Shown: piece after piece, positions 15,419 through 33,308 of the stretch | Layout: the number at the start of each line of letters is the position of its first letter | Position numbering within the stretch: the stretch's first letter is position 1 | Virus record (IMG/VR): IMGVR_UViG_3300030117_004654 | Span: 27,866-91,865 of that record | Direction: 5' to 3' (one strand) | Length of the DNA: 64,000 bases | Origin: a virus | Notes under the pieces: generated by a model | What the model saw: only the letters and a program-made list of their open reading frames with translations | Told to the model about the DNA's origin: nothing | The model's database searches: none | Made by a program: the position numbers and the translations under genes

Positions 15419-15937
15419 CTAAAATCACCTTTATTTCTCAAAATTTGGGCTGTAATTTATGAGGCACTAGCAAAAATTTTTTTAAGTTAATTATTCTATT
15501 TCCAGTATAAGAACTAATGTTTATAAGAACGTAGTTTAAAAGTAAAGATTATAATCATTATATTTGAAAGTAAACATTAGTTTAATCATATTTAATGTTG
15601 GAATACTTGTAATGGTATGCAAACCTTATGGCCGAAGTTTGTTTTAAAGTTAACTTAATAAGTGTTTAATATAAACAATACGTGTAATATAATATAAATG
15701 TATAATGCACATTTGCCATAAGTGATACGACTTACAGTATGCGATATTGACTACCCTTCATATAGTCTTGCATAATACAGACAATATTTTATGTGCAAAA
15801 TAGCAAATAAGTCATTATTCCGCATTAATTTTAATTAAATAAAAAATCGGTGCAAAGCATATGGTTGTGTAAAACCTCATTTAATTTAATATACTGCTAT
15901 CATATGGTAATGTATTAACTTTGGGAAATACAATATT

Positions 15938-15950
15938 GCCCCGAAGGGCG
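15938..15950 (-). terminator. C(UUCG)G hairpin right after the stop of the minus-strand unit
   Basis: Minus strand reads taa-cgccc-ttcg-gggc. Confidence 0.55.
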
Positions 15951-16124
15951 TTATTTACAAGGATATCTTAAATCCTCTATCCGACCTCTAAATCGTTTAG
16001 GGTCGAAATTATAGTTATCAGTACCAAACATATTAACAAAAAATGTTATTGTTCGGTCTGAAGCGTCACTAAACGCTAATGTTTCAGCAATTGCCTCATA
16101 ATGCCGTCGTTGGAATTTACTCAT
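15951..16124 (-). CDS. Small phage-type hypothetical protein (start reassigned to 16124)
   Basis: MSKFQRRHYEAIAETL...DNYNFDPKRF; TAATG coupling; GGAGG upstream. Confidence 0.65.
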   Translation of the reverse strand: MSKFQRRHYEAIAETLAFSDASDRTITFFVNMFGTDNYNFDPKRFRGRIEDLRYPCK

Positions 16125-16243
16125 TAGTATTCCTCCACGCATTCAATACAGGCAAATTCGCCATCCCAGAGATAACCACCTTCAAGGTGAACTTCTATCT
16201 CTTTTCCGCAATTAGCGCATTCACAGTCATAACTTGTTGTCAT
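16124..16243 (-). CDS. 39-aa Zn-finger protein (not in ORF track)
   Basis: MTTSYDCECANCGKEIEVHLEGGYLWDGEFACIECVEEY; two CxxC; coupled on both sides. Confidence 0.6.
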   Translation of the reverse strand: MTTSYDCECANCGKEIEVHLEGGYLWDGEFACIECVEEY

Positions 16244-16428
16244 TCTTCTCCCTCCACTTCGTATTCAACTGTTGTTGGCTCATATAGTAATTTAGGCATA
16301 CCTACCTTATCCATATAATTAACGATAGCGTCAACCTGTTGCATATATTTCCAAATTGAACTGCTATACGCCTTCAAATCTGCTTTCGTCATTTCGTGCA
16401 TTTCCTCTACTGTTTTTATTTCATTCAT
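16240..16428 (-). CDS. Hypothetical protein
   Basis: 62 aa with strong AGGAGG RBS. Confidence 0.7.
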   Translation of the reverse strand: MNEIKTVEEMHEMTKADLKAYSSSIWKYMQQVDAIVNYMDKVGMPKLLYEPTTVEYEVEGEE

Positions 16429-16922
16429 ATTTACGCCTCCTTAAATTCCCAATAAATCCATTCTTCGTTCTCAATCATCATTATCAATTTGGCCATTTTA
16501 AAAGCCCCACTGTTCAAAAGGATACATTTTCATTCCTCGGCAATAAGAGCATTATTCAAATAGGTTTAGGGTGCGTGTAACCAAAGTTTACCTTACCATA
16601 TGGTATTACTTTGGAATACCTCACTAAGACATAATGTACAAATCCTCTTTATGCCCGACCGCAATCGGGTCGCTGTGCCTGAATAATTATTTAACCAATA
16701 ATAAGGGATACCTGCCAGATTCTCTAGCGAGAACGCTTCAATGCTAAAATAGTGAGAAGCAAGATTATTTTATAATCGTCATTTAGCGATGACCAGCGCA
16801 AACAAAAAAGTAACGATTTTTGGGGTAGTAAAAGTAGCCGTCGATTTCATTGGCCAAGAATGGAATTGGGGTTCGGTGAAATTTAGGGGATATGCTACCA
16901 AGGCATAATGAACCTCAGCACT

Positions 16923-16952
16923 TATTTCCTGAGCATGAAGTAAAACTGTTCA
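16923..16952 (+). ncRNA. Candidate H-type pseudoknot element, copy 1
   Basis: atttc-ctgagcat-gaagt stem/loop; loop tgagca can pair with downstream tgttca after an A-rich linker. Confidence 0.35.
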
Positions 16953-17300
16953 TTATATTCCACAGTGGGAAGAAAGAGAGTTAAAAGGCGATATTGTAAT
17001 AATAGACGACGAAGATTTATGCCCTAGTAAATTGTTGGTAACAGAAGTAGATGATTAGATGGCCATTCATTGAAGACGCAATTGAAGACGCATACCTAGT
17101 ATTCGGTATTAGCAAAAAAAGCAAACCTCTCGGACTTCCTTTTCTATTCTTAAGGCCCCATGCAGCCTTCTTGGGAAAGCCTCCCTTAATGTCTATTTAG
17201 CGATAGATGAGTAAAAGATGTGGCATTATGCATAATGGCCGTGTACGCACAGCGGGATATAAAAGGTGCAAGGCATTCATCAAATACAGGAGAAATAAAA

Positions 17301-17495
17301 ATGTTTGGAAGAAAAACAATAGCAATAGGAAATGAGCCAAAAATGACCTTAAAGGTTGGACACGATAGATATAATAATTTGATAATTAAAGAATTAAGAG
17401 TCAGCGGTGACTCAATTGATGAAGTAATTAGTCAATTAAAACAGAGCCTAGAAGAATTTAATCAAATGAAGGGAGAAATTCTTTTAGCAGAATAA
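17301..17495 (+). CDS. Hypothetical protein (start reassigned to 17301)
   Basis: MFGRKTIAIG... with AGGAG RBS and upstream TATAAAAG; followed by a ccc-ttcg-ggg hairpin. Confidence 0.65.
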   Translation: MFGRKTIAIGNEPKMTLKVGHDRYNNLIIKELRVSGDSIDEVISQLKQSLEEFNQMKGEILLAE

Positions 17496-17505
17496 CCCTT
17501 CGGGG
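17496..17505 (+). terminator. C(UUCG)G hairpin immediately after the stop
   Basis: taa-ccc-ttcg-ggg, same as the element at 15938-15950. Confidence 0.55.
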
Positions 17506-17644
17506 AATTGTTAGATTACCAAAGTTAATCACAACCATATGGTATTACTTTGGAATATTTACGTAGCCTCAATAATACATATAGAACAAATGCTCTTAAT
17601 GCAGGGCGGGTTAATACCGTTCTAATGGAGAAAATAAACAGGAG

Positions 17645-18190
17645 ATGAAAAAAATGGCAGATTATAGCATGACAGACGAAAAATGGAATAAGAACAAGTC
17701 TAAGGTAACTACATACCTTGAAAACAATGACTTGGGAGATATGGAAGCAGTTATTCGGTGGAACCTAAATCAAGGTGATACTGATGTTGATAACCGGAAA
17801 AGATTCTGGACAAGCATTACCACACTTTTTGGTATGCTACCGGACAGCCCAATTACCCGTGGGCGCGAATCGTCACTACCGGAAGAAGTCCAACAGACAA
17901 TCAATTCGATTGCTGTTCAATACGCAGAAGCGTTTTCTGCGCCTTTTGCGACGGACCCTCTTTTTGGTGAAATCGTTCGAAAGCATGGAAAGTCGGATTA
18001 CGCGGCTTATGATGATTCAGACGAATATGCAGAGGTATTGAAGAATTCAATGCGAAACTCTTTAACGAGTTATTACCGAAACCACATTAAGGGCAACGAT
18101 GGCCCACAGTGGGATGGTACAATGACTGACGGAATGGTAACAATTAACGTTATTTCGTCAGAATCTTCTTCACAGGAGGAAGAGGAGTAA
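17645..18190 (+). CDS. Cassette protein, paralog family A
   Basis: Shares W..I, SP..RG..S.LP, KHGK and W.G motifs with 19648..20136. Confidence 0.8.
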   Translation: MKKMADYSMTDEKWNKNKSKVTTYLENNDLGDMEAVIRWNLNQGDTDVDNRKRFWTSITTLFGMLPDSPITRGRESSLPEEVQQTINSIAVQYAEAFSAPFATDPLFGEIVRKHGKSDYAAYDDSDEYAEVLKNSMRNSLTSYYRNHIKGNDGPQWDGTMTDGMVTINVISSESSSQEEEE

Positions 18191-18219
18191 GGGTGGTAAA
18201 ATCCGCCCTGCACCCTTTA

Positions 18220-18259
18220 GAGGGTTATCGGCCTTAATCACAATAGGCCGGTAACTCTC
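18220..18259 (+). terminator. Long RNA hairpin after the cassette gene
   Basis: gagggttatcggcct/aggccggtaactctc, 15 bp including two G-U pairs. Confidence 0.55.
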
Positions 18260-18347
18260 AAATTGGGGCTACGCGTTATTCTCCAAAGTAGAACCATATG
18301 GTCATGCATTTATGCATATGACCTCAAAAATAGGGTATCTTAAAAAT

Positions 18348-18491
18348 ATGTACGAAAAACACGGCGAAAGAATTATAGAAGCATCTGTCTACATTCTATT
18401 TATTGCTGTATGTATTTATTACTTAGTAATAAATCCTGTTGAATGCACTAACCCAGATGGTTCAATGAATTCACTGTGTTATCCTCCATAA
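18348..18491 (+). CDS. 47-aa single-pass membrane protein (not in ORF track)
   Basis: MYEKHGERIIEASVYILFIAVCIYYLVINPVECTNPDGSMNSLCYPP; fills the gap between two palindromes. Confidence 0.55.
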   Translation: MYEKHGERIIEASVYILFIAVCIYYLVINPVECTNPDGSMNSLCYPP

Positions 18492-18584
18492 TCACTTAAT
18501 ACCATATGGTAATGAAAACTTTGTAACAGCACCCTAAGACATTAGACATTTTTGCCCTTAATACCCAAAGGGGGTTAACAAAAT

Positions 18585-18992
18585 ATGGAGATTGAGAAGT
18601 TTAACGAGCAAGTAGGCCGAATTAGTGAGTGGTTGGATAACATTGAGGATGATTCAATGGCGATTGCCATGCTAAGGCAACAAATTGATATTGAACCAGC
18701 AGATAACGATAAAGCCCGAAAGAAGCACATGGCAGGTTTGAAGACTTTGCTACAAATGAGCGAAAGAACTGATTTGCCCTCAGTAACTCGTTCACGCGGT
18801 CCACACCGTGAAGAGGTTTATGCTGAATCTGCAAACATCACAGAAAAAGCAGAAGCACTCTTTGAAGCCGCAGGTGCATTTATGCATAAATGGGACACCA
18901 AGGAGGAATATAGCGAGTGGTTTGTCAAGAATATCGCAGAAAGCCACCACAGACACCAAACAAAGACAGAAAACACCTCAAAGGGGGCTTAA
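18585..18992 (+). CDS. Cassette protein, probable distant member of paralog family A
   Basis: N-terminal EKFNEQVGRISEWLDN resembles EKWNKNKSKVTTYLEN; followed by a tgaccct/agggtca hairpin. Confidence 0.7.
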   Translation: MEIEKFNEQVGRISEWLDNIEDDSMAIAMLRQQIDIEPADNDKARKKHMAGLKTLLQMSERTDLPSVTRSRGPHREEVYAESANITEKAEALFEAAGAFMHKWDTKEEYSEWFVKNIAESHHRHQTKTENTSKGA

Positions 18993-19647
18993 TTGCCTCC
19001 TGACCCTTTTTAGGGTCAAAATATCTTTACCCCAAAGTTAGTAGATAAGACCATATGGTTGTAAATGAAATATATGATATTTCTCCGTCAGAAGGGCTTC
19101 TTTGCCCGTTTGAAATCTAACCAATATAAAAGGGGTACTGCGAGCCACAGAAAAATAATTGTCTGAAAATATGGGGGCTAAACTAAAGGTACGGCCCAAT
19201 TGACATATACGATATAGGATAGTATATCTGATAAGTATAATGATATATGATATTAAGATACTATACCACCCGCACAACATTAGAGTGCTTCTACCGGAGT
19301 ATTTACATGGGAGAGCCTTTTGTAAAATAAACAAAAGAATCTTTTAACCTAAAATGGCTGAGTGAAAAGATGAGATGAGAAGTTCAAATATGCCCTTCGC
19401 ACGTTCAAACTACATATTATCTCCTACATTTTGTACACGATAACGATGAAGTTCATACGCATTATGATGAAGATATTACGAAGAATAGGCTAAAGGTTAT
19501 TCTCTAATTATCATTATTATCAAATGATGTTTAAACTAAACCTTCATATACTCTACTATGGATGCAGACTTGCCCCGCAGGGGCCAATCAATACATAAGG
19601 ATTAAAACAAGATATAGAATTAAATTGATTGTATTTTTGAAACAAAG

Positions 19648-20136
19648 GTGAAGAAAATGGAAGGTTGGACAGCAAGAACAGAAGAAGTAAGCGATTTTAT
19701 TGCAACTGAAGGATTTGACGAGCAATTGCGACAAGTTATTCAGTTCCAATTAAATTTTGGAAATGAGAACCCCGCACAACAAGAGCGAGTTTGGGACAGT
19801 ATTAAGTCTATGATTCGTGGATTGGATGGTTCTCCTGTAAGAAGAGGAAAGAAGAGCAATTTGCCTGCAAGTGTAAATGTAGCAGTTGACCAAGTTTGTG
19901 CTGAAGTGGCATCACTTCATGCAAACCTATTTGACAGCAATCCGCTACTACAAGCAGTATTGCTAAAACACGGAAAAGCCGGTGGCGGTTCATACGAAAG
20001 TGGGGCTTCATACGGTAAAGCAGTTAGCAAGAAAACTCGTACTCTTCTAAAGAAGATGTATGCAGAAGATTCATGGAACGGTGAATACAGTGGTTTAACC
20101 GCTACTGTCGCTATTTCCCATGATGAAGAAGAGTGA
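19648..20136 (+). CDS. Protein of paralog family A
   Basis: Clear similarity to 17645..18190 (GSPVRRGKKSNLP vs DSPITRGRESSLP; LLKHGK vs VRKHGK). Confidence 0.8.
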   Translation: MKKMEGWTARTEEVSDFIATEGFDEQLRQVIQFQLNFGNENPAQQERVWDSIKSMIRGLDGSPVRRGKKSNLPASVNVAVDQVCAEVASLHANLFDSNPLLQAVLLKHGKAGGGSYESGASYGKAVSKKTRTLLKKMYAEDSWNGEYSGLTATVAISHDEEE

Positions 20137-20235: not shown

Positions 20236-20687
20236 TTTAACATATCATTAAAATGATATTAATCTTTTTCTAAATGTTACAAAAGCAGATGGGGTCGCGC
20301 CCTATAACCTACGAGCCGATTCCCCATATTGAGCAAACAGTGATTATTTCCATTATTCTCAATGTTTTCATAGAGTGAAAAAAACAAATTGATGGGGATA
20401 AGGCATAGTATCTTATACATTTTGTTTATTATTTATTATTTTTATTATTATCAATACTACTACTACTTGAACACCCTCAATCTCACAGACACAGAAAGAC
20501 ACACCCCCTGATAATTATGATAATCGAGAATCGAGAGGTATCTGCTACAAAATGCACACGATAATGGGGGTTTTCGTACACATATTGTCATTATCACGGC
20601 CTGTAATAATTTGATAATTACCAAACCGGATATGACTTTTCACTTAATCAAATTAATTTAATACAGAAATAAAAGGAGAAATGAAAG

Positions 20688-21631: not shown

Positions 21632-21642
21632 ATCCCATTCAT

Positions 21643-21716
21643 GGGCCATTGGCGCAGTTAGGTAGCGCAACGGGCTTTTAACCCGTTGGTCAAGGGTTCG
21701 AATCCCTTATGGCCCG
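21643..21716 (+). tRNA. tRNA-Lys(UUU)
   Basis: Cloverleaf: gggccat/atggccc acceptor, acggg-cttttaa-cccgt anticodon arm, GTTCGAATC T-loop; no encoded CCA. Confidence 0.95.
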
Positions 21717-21757
21717 TTATATTCATTTGTCAAACAAAGACATTAAAATAAACAAAA

Positions 21758-21841
21758 GGCGGGATTTCAGAGTTTGGCCAAATGAGCAGGACTTAAGATT
21801 CTGTGCGAAATGCTTCGTGGGTTCAAATCCCACTCCCGCCA
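21758..21841 (+). tRNA. tRNA-Leu(UAA)
   Basis: ggcggga/tcccgcc acceptor, cagga-cttaaga-ttctg anticodon arm, long variable arm, GTTCAAATC. Confidence 0.9.
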
Positions 21842-21845
21842 CTTT

Positions 21846-21919
21846 GGGCAATTAGTGTAGTCTGGAAATCACTTTGGCCTTCTAAGCCGAAAACAGGGGT
21901 TCGAATCCTCTATTGCCCG
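21846..21919 (+). tRNA. tRNA-Arg(UCU)
   Basis: gggcaat/attgccc acceptor, ttggc-cttctaa-gccga anticodon arm, GTTCGAATC. Confidence 0.92.
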
Positions 21920-21951
21920 CCTTATTCAATAAAACAAAAGGAGATATAAAA

Positions 21952-22176
21952 ATGAAGAAAAAAGATATGAAAAAAATGATAGAAGAAATAGAGCGGCTTG
22001 GTGTCCTTGTTAAGGACTTTGAGTTAAGTAAACACATTAAGTTGTGGATAGAAAATAAAAACACAGGAACTATTAAATTAGTTACTGTGTCTGCCACACC
22101 AAAATGTAAAGGAAAATATGCATTAGTAAAATCTAGTGTTAGAAAAGTATTTAGAAAAATAGGTGAAGAAATATGA
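21952..22176 (+). CDS. Small basic protein, HicA-like fold possible
   Basis: AGGAG RBS; ...SKHIKLWI...VTVSATP pattern. Confidence 0.4.
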   Translation: MKKKDMKKMIEEIERLGVLVKDFELSKHIKLWIENKNTGTIKLVTVSATPKCKGKYALVKSSVRKVFRKIGEEI

Positions 22177-27402: not shown

Positions 27403-27873
27403 GTGAAAACAAAAACTCAAAAAACAATAGGGGTGGCTATCGTCGGAATTTCGGGTGTTATTATGAAACCAGATAATAAGAATTATATGTCTGAAGATGT
27501 GTTAAAAATCATTTTAGAACAATTAGGTTGGTCTTATACAGGGACATTAACGGATATATTAAGAGAACATAATTTAAATGGGCCTATTGTGCCTATTCGG
27601 GCAGATTTTTACCCTATTGGGTGGAAACTCGCTTCGTCGAATAAAGCCATTATTATATGTGATGGTTATAAAAGTGTTATTCACTATAAAAATGAAAGAT
27701 TCCTCACAGGTTGGGGGATTTATGATAGATTCGGGCTTGAAGGTCTGAACGATATAGAAAATTGGAATTTTGAAGAAGAAATGGAATGGTTAATTAAAAA
27801 GTATAATGGGGATTTGATTACCTCATTTACTCAGTTAACTGATTGTCCGTTTAGAACAAGTATAAGGTGTTAA
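27403..27873 (+). CDS. Hypothetical protein (likely start ~27463)
   Basis: ORF preceding the RNR gene. Confidence 0.55.
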   Translation: MKTKTQKTIGVAIVGISGVIMKPDNKNYMSEDVLKIILEQLGWSYTGTLTDILREHNLNGPIVPIRADFYPIGWKLASSNKAIIICDGYKSVIHYKNERFLTGWGIYDRFGLEGLNDIENWNFEEEMEWLIKKYNGDLITSFTQLTDCPFRTSIRC

Positions 27874-32342: not shown

Positions 32343-33308
32343 ATGAAAATGAGAGTAGAAGATACAACAAAGTGTAAAGAGTGCAATAGTAGAAACTTAG
32401 TTGAAGATATTAAGCGAGGAGAATTATATTGCGCTGATTGTGGTTCAGTTTTAGATGAAAAGCAAATTGAACGAAAAACATCGGGTCGAGAAAAAGATGG
32501 CGACCCAAATTCAGCAAGAATTTATGAACCAAATGACCCTGCATGGGTTTTGGGTTCTCAAGTTGGTATTAGAAATACTGATGGTTCGATTGACAGAACA
32601 AAAATTGGCAGAGCGTTAAGAAAAGAAAATAAAAGGCAGTTACCAAGCCATGTTAGAAATCAACAGAAAGGGATAGTGCAAGTTAAAATGCTTCTTGCAG
32701 ATTTAGGCGCACCTCTTGATTTTCAAAAACAAGCAGTTTGGAACTATAAGCGACTAAATCAACTTAGAGTTTTTAATGGTATGCCTTTGGAAACTAGAGC
32801 CGCCGCAGTAGTTTATTTTACTTATAGGGATAATAATATTTTAAGGTCTATTGAAGAAGTAGCAGAAGCAAATTCTTCTCATCCTAGACAAGTTGCTAAG
32901 TTATCTAGAAAAATTGCTTCGGCATTTAGACGACCTTGGGTATTGTCTAGAAAAAATATGCAGGATGAGATTCTAAAATATTGTAATCTACTTAAGATGA
33001 ATCAGAATGATATTGCATCTATACTTGAATTATCTGTTCCTGTGGAACAAATGGCTGACGGCCTTTACTATCAAAAAGGAGTAGGATTAACTGCGGCTCT
33101 TATTTATCTAGGTATTAGGTTAATTCCAAATGGTTCATATAGAACCCAAAGGGATATTTCAGAGGTTTGTAGAATTACAGAAGTTACCTTAAGAAACAAC
33201 TACAAACTTATACTTAAGGGATTAAATATAGACAAGTCAAGTGTTGACCATCAAGGTTTTACTATTGACGACATTATAAGTGGGGCGTATAGAAATGAAG
33301 AAGAATAA
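32343..33308 (+). CDS. tfb: Transcription initiation factor TFIIB/TFB homolog
   Basis: Zn ribbon CKECNS...GELYCADCGSVL; cyclin repeats with AAAVVY and AALIY...RTQRDISEVCRITEVTLRNNYK. Confidence 0.92.
   Translation: MKMRVEDTTKCKECNSRNLVEDIKRGELYCADCGSVLDEKQIERKTSGREKDGDPNSARIYEPNDPAWVLGSQVGIRNTDGSIDRTKIGRALRKENKRQLPSHVRNQQKGIVQVKMLLADLGAPLDFQKQAVWNYKRLNQLRVFNGMPLETRAAAVVYFTYRDNNILRSIEEVAEANSSHPRQVAKLSRKIASAFRRPWVLSRKNMQDEILKYCNLLKMNQNDIASILELSVPVEQMADGLYYQKGVGLTAALIYLGIRLIPNGSYRTQRDISEVCRITEVTLRNNYKLILKGLNIDKSSVDHQGFTIDDIISGAYRNEEE

Follow-up and report, generated by a model that had tools for sequence, protein, structure and literature searches.

A 10-bp palindrome at gene-cassette joints in magrovirus-like genomes as a candidate recombination site

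Small-gene cassettes in the variable ('hyperplastic') block of a magrovirus-like genome meet at copies of a 10-bp palindrome, ACCATATGGT, and rearrangements among related viruses break at this core. Going by comparative sequence data, we lean towards the view that the palindrome is a recombination site at the cassette joints, the enzyme being unidentified. The anatomy of the element, its conservation, its occurrence as one array per genome and the breakpoints at the core were directly observed, and joining as its main function is inferred. All evidence for rearrangement is comparative and comes from metagenome assemblies, without a circular intermediate, a junction read or a binding assay.

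The element was found in the IMG/VR record IMGVR_UViG_3300030117_004654 (91,865 bp, 97% complete), of which a 64,000-nucleotide stretch (positions 27,866 to 91,865), here called the window, was analyzed. In the ocean, magroviruses rank among the most abundant viruses infecting Marine Group II archaea; to our knowledge, none has been cultured, and neither their regulation nor the plasticity of their genomes is understood. They are tailed viruses of ~90-100 kb with a family-B DNA polymerase (PolB), archaeal-type replication proteins, a chaperonin, an ATP-dependent ligase, and a tailed-virus structural module. The record met all of these criteria. Its PolB is split, with haloarchaeal tailed viruses as the closest cultured relatives (26% identity), and it encodes an RFC-like AAA+ protein, a RecB/Cas4-like nuclease, a TFIIB/TFB homologue, a chaperonin, a ligase, RNR, an SU10-type capsid protein, and a tail tube. 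Judged by this gene content and without direct comparison to named magrovirus genomes, the source virus is magrovirus-like, i.e. a putative virus of Marine Group II archaea.

Exact cores were located at window positions 16595, 17534, 18293, 18501, and 19050, and one-mismatch cores at 15856 (AGCATATGGT) and 15899 (ATCATATGGT). The seven copies, spanning 3.2 kb, correspond to those counted in a preliminary description of this DNA, except that the first begins at 15856 rather than 15857. When one mismatch was allowed, 12 matches to the core were present in the window compared with 2.2 expected from shuffles, and none of 100 shuffles reached 12. In the whole record, the exact core occurred five times, all in this one array and within 2.5 kb rather than spread evenly, against ~0.1 copies expected by our own estimate from base composition.

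The layout of the array is given in Table 1. Four units end as stop codon, hairpin, CCAAAGT, spacer, and core (one on the minus strand, ending at 15951, and three on the plus strand, ending at 17495, 18190, and 18992). As previously described, two of them share one hairpin, CCCTTCGGGG; its copies lie at 17497-17506 and, on the minus strand, around 15938-15949. Four units start with the core, ACTTTG(G), and a CAC(CC)TAAGAC-like block; two of these start from 16595, one on each strand, and the other two run on the plus strand from 17534 and 18501. This block had been described as promoter-like; since the host is archaeal, it is BRE/TATA-like rather than a bacterial promoter. Position 16595 is indeed the point of divergence, with promoters on both sides; the leftward one fits the family pattern RCTTTG-N4-11-ACC(C/T)TA, and the site folds into a two-armed single-stranded DNA hairpin (z -3.9). 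The ORFs of the leftward cassette had no match in PHROG. No ORF of at least 50 aa was present in 16605-17300 (~700 nt), ~670 nt of which belong to the cassette body that starts at 16631, and this body had no Rfam match. The armless mini-cassette is nested inside what appears to be a single two-armed site. At the last joint, the outward side (TGTAAATG) lacks an arm, and distal array ends in relatives are likewise often armless and read core-TGT(R).

Table 1. Elements of the cassette array, in window coordinates
Feature	Position	Strand	Details
Polar terminal site (includes the first core copy of the preliminary description)	15830..15870	+	A-rich block AAATAAAAAATCGGTG, then compact site CAAAGCATATGGTTGT
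Joint after leftward cassette	15899..15924	+	One-mismatch core ATCATATGGT, inner arm ACTTTGG (15918-15924)
Leftward cassette	15938..16428	-	Three small ORFs: 16240-16428, 16124-16243, 15951-16142
Terminator hairpin of leftward cassette	about 15938-15949	-	GCCCTTCGGGGC
Leftward promoter arm	16567..16587	-	ACTTTGG (16581-16587), then ACCCTA BRE/TATA-like box (16567-16572)
Exact core, divergence point	16595..16604		Flanked by two promoters
Rightward arm and box	16608..16630	+	ACTTTGG, TATA-like CACTAAGAC
Cassette body	16631..17495	+	Ends in small gene 17302-17495 (family F1, about 65 aa)
Full joint	17497..17553		Hairpin CCCTTCGGGG 17497-17506, CCAAAGT 17519-17525, core 17534-17543, ACTTTGG 17547-17553
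Cassette	17566..18190	+	TATA-like GCCTCAATAATA (17566-17577), 181-aa gene 17645-18190 (family F0)
Joint with outer arm only	18283..18302		CCAAAGT-aga-core
Armless mini-cassette	18303..18500	+	59-aa ORF 18312-18491, between two cores
Core, arm, and box	18501..18539	+	Arm ACTTTG (18518-18523), TATA-like CACCCTAAGA (18530-18539)
Gene and terminator	18585..19020	+	135-aa gene (18585-18992), hairpin TGACCCTTTTTAGGGTCA (19003-19020)
Last joint	19032..19059		CCAAAGT (19032-19038), 11-nt spacer, core (19050-19059)

The same element recurs across a large family of viruses. Its full form is CAAAGY-N3-10-ACCATATGGT-N3-10-RCTTTG, with a hairpin/T-run terminator on one side and, on the other, an ACC(C/T)TA(T/A)A box that lies ~25-30 nt upstream of the start codon. 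Related IMG/VR contigs contributed about 80 stretches, each with one array of 3-11 exact cores. In related stretches, 395 unique exact cores were counted, and five full records of relatives had 6-11 cores each in a single 2.4-4.9 kb cluster. As a check on ascertainment, loci were retrieved by the F0 protein alone, and all six carried 4-5 exact cores. RCTTTG was present within 22 nt of the core for 78% of all arms compared with 2% in a control window. Among sites defined by their arms, the core was near-invariant (241 exact, six with one mismatch, and none with two). Neither inner arm was present in 19 cassettes of relatives, mostly mini-cassettes of 72-274 bp, and the core is duplicated around such armless mini-inserts, including window 18293-18510. 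F0 was the commonest cassette family, with 82 members in arrays and 107 protein clusters, all unnamed; its AF2 model is helical (pLDDT 85), and the protein had no match in PDB or Pfam. In 596 Gb of prokaryote genomes, the composite element was detected in 47 stretches compared with ~44 expected by our own estimate, and is thus essentially absent there beyond chance; the single multi-site contig is probably a misbinned virus. No mention of the motif was found in the magrovirus papers searched in full text.

One end of the array carries a distinct, polar site, CAAAG(C)CATATGGTTGT, which occurs once per array in compact form. In all 48 loci having it, this site is external to the exact cores and has its TTGT side turned towards them. 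The consensus of its outer flank is AAATAAAAAATTTGRA-CAAAGCC, and window 15824-15868 is 91% identical to L019. This polar variant, adjoining a leftward block of WxxILK-tagged genes, may anchor one end of the array.

Comparison of close relatives revealed reordering, inversion, gain, and loss of cassettes with every breakpoint at the palindrome, an outcome that the preliminary description had named as support for recombination. Between L108 and L076, whose flanks are 93-98% identical, one cassette is translocated across two others; all four breakpoints lie at the core, and the spacers and arms travel with the cassette. The cassette order of L076 was found again in L095, an independent assembly. 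L088 and L120 differ by two indels of one cassette each and by an exchange of neighboring cassettes, in every case at cores, and a single cassette is inverted between L072 and L029. Relative to the window, the F1 and F0 cassettes are in exchanged order in L173, and the F0 cassette is inverted in L174 with collinear flanks. Furthermore, 234 of the 370 blastn alignment ends within 200 nt of a core lay 0-40 nt past the core center. Together with the anatomy, these rearrangements support the earlier inference that the dyad joins promoter-gene-terminator modules which are self-contained. Because many of the loci derive from related samples, these counts do not represent independent events. Exchanged cassettes were also more diverged (81-85%) than the flanks (93-98%), so that some apparent moves may reflect replacement by cassettes of other viruses instead of intragenomic transposition.

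In the reading that we favor, a cassette consists of a half-core, a short spacer, an RCTTTG arm, a BRE/TATA-like box, one or a few ORFan genes, a hairpin and T-run terminator, a CAAAGY arm, a second spacer, and another half-core, with adjacent cassettes having one full core, ACCATATGGT, in common. The core and arms would be recognized by a sequence-specific viral or host protein, which is inferred without binding data, and the crossover would fall inside the 10-bp core. A whole expression unit could then be excised, inserted, flipped, or swapped between co-infecting viruses while retaining its own promoter and terminator; flipping would be possible because the core is its own reverse complement.

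It is possible, though we doubt it, that the element is instead a regulatory or insulating site and that recombination is a by-product, as in a true PeSL (promoter-early stem-loop) analogue. A dimeric viral or host protein bound to the core and arms would co-regulate the cassette promoters or stop read-through, and general or microhomology recombination would cross at the joints since the element is their only common sequence. Binding sites of homodimers are typically perfect palindromes like this one of 10 bp. The element is always beside a terminator and/or a promoter, the position expected of a regulatory site, which counts against the joint reading; RCTTTG lies 4-11 nt upstream of the BRE/TATA-like box, and the array-type promoter is absent from the rest of the genome, suggesting one co-regulated gene class. 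The T4-type PeSLs and the HGTV-1 motif offer precedents for shuffling without a dedicated recombinase (PMC2839356, PMC4122927, PMC3950731), and the recombinase search of the record, described below, was negative. By contrast, the element did not meet the criteria of an operator, namely a fixed distance to the promoter and presence at promoters only. The core-to-TATA distance varied from 11 to 29 nt without compensation. When 168 joints were classified by the terminator (T) or promoter (P) on each side, 56 were T/P, 55 P/T, 32 P/P, and 25 T/T; the 25 convergent joints have no promoter on either side but still carry exact cores with arms. Arms accompanied 94% of the sides with a promoter and 91% of those with a terminator, i.e. 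they are equally conserved on both. Moreover, the arms covary within a cassette and not within a site: the two inner arms of one cassette share CTTTG-flanking bases (60% vs 44% and 39-44% vs 26% expected), also after collapse to 114 cassette families, whereas the two arms of one site showed no such sharing. The core is far more invariant than operators usually are, and no DNA-binding candidate was found among the neighboring genes scanned. The operator of a dimeric regulator proposed earlier is thus weakened by the promoter-less convergent joints and the variable TATA distance but is not excluded. Microhomology or copy-choice recombination at the sole shared exact sequence also remains possible, and a 10-bp exact repeat could be a passive microhomology hotspot whatever its real function.

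A stronger form of the recombination-site reading, which we regard as rather unlikely, is dedicated site-specific exchange of self-expressed cassettes with matched inverted arms, in either orientation at a palindromic core and starting from the polar site as the primary site, like an inside-out integron. The catalyst would be a non-Pfam recombinase or nuclease, possibly one of the conserved ORFans. The absence of an integrase from the window, remarked on before, extends to the whole record, where Phage_integrase (E<=1) and Resolvase gave no match. Searches for tyrosine and serine recombinases, Y1 and DDE(rve) transposases, HNH nucleases, Hjc, and Rad51/RadA were likewise negative, and only the RecB/Cas4-like nuclease was found, which counts against the reading that we favor.

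Replication-origin iterons, or a packaging or DNA-entry signal, are an improbable explanation. The cumulative GC skew of the record has its minimum at the array, an AT-rich stretch of ~430 bp adjoins the terminal site, and the CCA..TGG dyads of the array, as we see it, loosely recall archaeal origin recognition boxes (ORBs). However, the skew switch coincides with the gene-strand switch. Archaeal origins have compact inverted ORBs flanking an AT-rich unwinding element beside an orc1/cdc6 initiator gene, whereas the sites here are interspersed with genes over 2.5-5 kb and differ in number and order from one close relative to another. The array, which had been placed near the genome end, is in fact mid-record (43.7-46.9 kb of 91.9 kb), so a packaging or entry signal there is unsupported. 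Chance repeats, or chimeric assemblies joined at short repeats, can be practically dismissed: every relative is a metagenome assembly and single-core matches in the IMG/VR scan fall within the chance range by our own estimate, but no shuffle attained the observed count, arrays occur in about 80 stretches from many samples, L076 and L095 independently share a rearranged order, and exact identity between sites extends to at most ~24 nt, which we infer is below usual assembler k-mers.

The cis-element flags the location of the variable genes, which probably serve host takeover, in each genome of a large family, and provides sequence-level evidence on how magroviruses trade new genes. It also yields models of archaeal promoters and terminators for a virus-host pair that has not been cultured, a 40-bp bait for finding the protein that reads the element, and a simple pattern for recognizing magrovirus fragments in metagenomes, one of which lies in a bacterial MAG.

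Among known systems, the PeSLs of T4-type phages are composite terminator/promoter elements that bracket small ORFan genes in a hyperplastic region, and close relatives differ by insertion, deletion, or replacement of whole cassettes at the elements, with no dedicated recombinase known (PMC2839356, PMC4122927). The magrovirus ORFan cassettes are similarly flanked by hairpin/T-run terminators and BRE/TATA-like boxes, and indels and replacements between relatives end in the elements. Unlike with PeSLs, the host is archaeal, and the conserved recombining sequence is not a bacterial sigma-70 early promoter; the crossover falls at a distinct, near-invariant palindrome of 10 bp that has inverted arms and lies between terminator and promoter, being neither of these itself, and the arrays show inversions and a polar end site. 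A PeSL-type system would also be expected to form circular cassette mini-circles during infection. The haloarchaeal tailed virus HGTV-1 has a conserved motif of a TATA box and an inverted repeat before ORFs, which a review of the original work (Sencilo et al. 2013, via PMC3950731) likens to PeSLs, with roles in regulation and genome shuffling proposed; by that review's account, shuffling is only a suggestion, with no comparative evidence seen for it. By that description, and without sequence comparison, HGTV-1 resembles the present case as an archaeal tailed virus with a repeated intergenic TATA-like box and inverted repeat; it differs in that the magrovirus core is common to a large family.

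Bacterial REP/BIME sequences share the features of short intergenic palindromes located 3' of genes, often as inverted pairs, that are hotspots of recombination or insertion. They are dispersed genome-wide and tied to RAYT (REP-associated tyrosine transposase) proteins, whereas the magrovirus element forms a single array per genome with no Y1 transposase and is strictly linked to cassette boundaries. In integrons, the gene for the tyrosine recombinase IntI lies beside the primary site, and promoterless cassettes are expressed from a common promoter. The magrovirus array has features analogous to the attI/attC arrangement, without a sequence or enzymatic link: it is polar with a distinct site at one end, and its cassettes end in imperfect palindromes whose inverted boxes are conserved and whose spacers vary. 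As in integrons, cassettes are gained, lost, and reordered at the sites. Both ends of a given cassette also match, as if they formed one site in an inferred circular intermediate. By contrast, no IntI or other tyrosine recombinase is present in the record, and the array belongs to a lytic-type archaeal virus rather than a bacterial chromosome or plasmid. Every magrovirus cassette has its own BRE/TATA-like promoter box and terminator, and the core is a perfect palindrome, so that cassettes occur in both orientations.

The 10-bp palindromic core, ACCATATGGT, was found in exact form at window positions 16595, 17534, 18293, 18501 and 19050, with one-mismatch copies at 15856 and 15899. Allowing up to one mismatch brought the window count to 12, a number that was not reached in any of 100 shuffles (2.2 expected). 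A count over the full 91,865-bp IMG/VR record (window: bases 27866-91865), proposed in the preliminary description, returned only these five exact copies in a single 2.5-kb cluster in mid-record, against ~0.1 copies estimated by chance from base composition. The directional units that had been described were also borne out: four units end with a stop codon, hairpin, CCAAAGT, spacer and core, four start with the core, ACTTTG(G) and a common block, and this block is present on both strands at the divergence point at 16595. Other features are listed in the table.

Location of features in the window and in related loci (L-numbers)
Feature	Location	Remark
Polar terminal site	window 15830-15870	first core copy of the preliminary description
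F0 paralogues (165-220 aa)	window 17645-18190, 18585-18992, probably 19648-20136	
Armless mini-cassette	window 18293-18510	one of the 19 armless cassettes
tRNA cluster Lys(ttt), Leu(taa), Arg(tct)	window 21642-21921	just downstream of the array
TFIIB/TFB homologue	window 32343-33308	zinc ribbon and cyclin repeat
Micro-ORF mini-cassettes in relatives	L026:474-606, L077:1459-1575, L014:8362-8481, L005:7920-8119	

We searched IMG/VR for CCAAAGT-N3-12-core and obtained more than 118 stretches, mostly on contigs of 87-100 kb; 81 of them carry 2-10 exact cores each, spaced ~400-800 bp apart. In each of five full related records, 6-11 cores were counted, all confined to a single cluster of 2.4-4.9 kb. 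Six loci retrieved solely via F0, a family of cassette proteins, also carry 4-5 exact cores each, so the link between the core and F0 loci is not due to the choice of loci. All relatives are metagenome assemblies, many out of related samples. Of the inverted flanks (arms) at 395 unique sites, 78% have RCTTTG at a distance of 3-10 nt from the core, compared with 2% in a control window, and both arms were present at 62% of the sites. On these statistics, the unit is CAAAGY-N-ACCATATGGT-N-RCTTTG. Segments picked by the two arms alone contained 241 exact cores, 6 with one mismatch and none with two. In 596 Gb of prokaryote genomes, the two-armed pattern matched 47 stretches, with ~44 estimated by chance. 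The only multi-site contig among these (NZ_NZTP01000027.1, 14.7 kb, from an "Altibacter sp." MAG), which has six exact cores at array spacing, is probably a piece of a magrovirus genome that was wrongly placed in a flavobacterial MAG. Poseidoniales genomes were absent from the matches, so the element is apparently a viral one, not a motif of the host. A literature search for the 10-mer returned cloning primers only, and a text search of magrovirus papers found no "palindrom", no "promoter" and no cis-element motif.

The polymerase of the record is a split family-B enzyme whose nearest cultured relatives are from haloarchaeal tailed viruses (26% identity). The record also encodes an RFC-like ATPase, a RecB/Cas4-like nuclease, a chaperonin, an ATP-dependent ligase, ribonucleotide reductase and, among structural genes, an SU10-type capsid protein and a tail tube. 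This is the gene set of magroviruses (PMC5434244, PMC5628999), and the promoters are therefore to be read as archaeal. The viral TFIIB/TFB homologue could divert the RNA polymerase of the host to a class of viral promoters. Bacterial sigma-70 or Bacteroidetes promoters and a crAss-like virion-RNAP early promoter were ruled out by PolB, TFB and RFC, which mark an archaeal virus.

On gene-start sides, RCTTTG is followed after 4-11 nt by (A)ACC(C/T)TA(T/A)A, and the distance from the ACC of this box to the start codon is most often 28-34 nt. The box and the start distance fit a BRE/TATA box with leaderless mRNAs, a reading made without expression data. The CAC(CC)TAAGAC block, previously called promoter-like, is this TATA-like box. 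In a second promoter class, the start codon is preceded by a ~70-90-nt leader containing GGAG or GGTGA. In the window, a ATGCTCTTAATGC-like block lies ~25 nt downstream of the TATA-like box, which we infer to be near the expected transcript start. On gene-end sides, a G+C hairpin (often CCCGAAGG-like) and a T-run precede the arm and the core.

The main rival explanation, possible but rather doubtful in our judgment, is that the element serves as a regulator or insulator site and that recombination there is merely incidental. The combination of arm and box occurs nowhere else in the genome. Arms were found on 94% of promoter sides versus 91% of terminator sides, and the 168 joints between cassettes at which both neighbouring ORFs have at least 50 aa comprised 111 tandem, 32 divergent and 25 convergent cases, the last with terminators on both sides. 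The core-to-box distance was 11-29 nt, and no spacer-length compensation was observed in a test of fixed core-TATA phasing; the correlation was positive. Local hairpins around RCTTTGY showed merely a weak excess of complementarity.

Within a cassette, the bases flanking CTTTG were shared between both inner arms at 60% versus 44% and 39-44% versus 26% by chance, and this likeness persisted after collapse to 114 cassette families. In the same comparison, the two arms of one site did not share their flanking bases. Because arms match within a cassette and not within a site, the arms behave like cassette-end inverted repeats and the sites like inter-cassette joints. Two-armed sites are able to fold as ssDNA hairpins (z -3.9, -2.05), and one-armed sites are not. 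Both inner arms are missing from 19 cassettes, most of them inserts of 72-274 bp between two cores in an otherwise two-armed site; this pattern would be expected if insertion took place at the core and duplicated it.

Relatives had been proposed as the place to look for reordering, inversion, gain and loss at the palindrome, and all were seen there, with breakpoints at cores. Between L108 and L076, whose flanks are 93-98% identical, one cassette was translocated over two others; all four breakpoints fell at the core, and spacers and arms stayed with their own cassette. Between L088 and L120 (flanks ~92% identical), there are two single-cassette indels, and two neighbouring cassettes have exchanged places, in every case at cores; a single cassette is inverted between L072 and L029. 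Compared with the window, L173 has the order of F1 (another cassette protein family) and F0 reversed, and L174 has the F0 cassette inverted between collinear flanks. When all pairs of loci were compared, 370 alignment ends came within 200 nt of a core, and 234 of these fell 0-40 nt past the core centre. The L076 order was seen again in an independent assembly, L095. Origin, packaging and artefact readings of the element are unlikely.

A compact variant, CAAAG(C)CATATGGTTGT, was present in 48 loci, once per locus and outside the exact cores. Its TTGT side pointed toward the exact cores in 48/48 loci, and a conserved A-rich block stood just before it. In the window, this terminal site has as neighbours ~430 bp of AT-rich intergenic DNA and the gene, beginning MNWMDILK, that opens the leftward block.

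Clustering the ORFs of 331 inter-core cassettes gave 69 families and 160 singletons, of which hardly any matched a database entry. The same families recur in related arrays in differing order and orientation. Most relatives have 1-3 F0 copies in each array, and F0 is represented by 107 unnamed clusters in a 5.8-billion-protein set; the GenBank phage collection contained no relative. The proteins nearest to the F0 member of the window are 77-99% identical to it, and an alignment of the family shows no conserved stretch. Its AF2 model was confident and all-helical without an informative structural match, and VIA-align gave generic helical bundles only (Z<=7). F0 as a binder of the element or an enzyme was rejected, with no Pfam, PDB-sequence or Foldseek match and a blank ESM Atlas. 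Among the other families searched against Pfam, F3 alone matched (e.g. L066:7012-7305), to Kyano_Gp96 of marine cyanomyoviruses (E 1e-13); judged from sequence, the match suggests that marine viruses of bacteria and archaea may exchange genes. No clear DNA-binding domain was found in the small genes downstream of the array. In relatives, a strong GGAGG resembling a Shine-Dalgarno sequence is found in armless mini-cassettes between duplicated cores, and the micro-ORFs behind it encode peptides that are very acidic (e.g. MYDDED, MFEDDE, VDEDEEEEQE). An EEE(E) C-terminal end is common to many cassette proteins, including that at 17645-18190.

Gene calls were simple ORFs. Two stretches of ~600-700 nt directly 3' of a core, 16605-17300 and 19060-19640, had no forward-strand ORF of at least 50 aa; the first is additionally downstream of a promoter arm, and the second is overlapped by a minus-strand 98-aa ORF with a TTG start (19038-19334). 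They have a similar 30-nt segment near their starts (16689-16718 and 19115-19144), no overall alignment to each other and almost nothing matching in relatives. Apart from the three downstream tRNAs, Rfam and tRNA searches over 15-22.5 kb gave no hits, and neither stretch matched Rfam. Both may be non-coding RNAs. A second intergenic repeat, ~ATCTNCTACATTTTGTACACGATAA, occurs at 19413-19462, 20404-20425, 20539-20583 and 22100-22125 (minus strand), downstream of the array among F0-like paralogues, a nucleotide kinase and the tRNAs, and may mark another promoter class.

No match to Phage_integrase, Resolvase, Y1_Tnp, rve, HNH, Hjc or Rad51 was found in the whole record, so the earlier remark that no integrase was visible extends to the rest of the genome, where a recombinase search had been suggested. 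In the absence of binding, expression or intermediate data, we lean modestly toward the element being a cassette-joint recombination site, read by a sequence-specific factor or used in microhomology-type exchange. The catalyst or reader of the joint would be a factor as yet unidentified, unless microhomology-type exchange takes its place.

In the haloarchaeal virus HGTV-1, a motif with a TATA and an inverted repeat has already been likened to the promoter-early stem-loop (PeSL) cassettes of T4-type phages (PMC3950731). The magrovirus system works similarly to T4-type PeSLs (PMC2839356, PMC4122927) and to integrons, yet it is a member of neither, and the record has no IntI. Its promoter is archaeal, its crossover sequence is a separate palindrome, and its cassettes are self-expressed and invertible.
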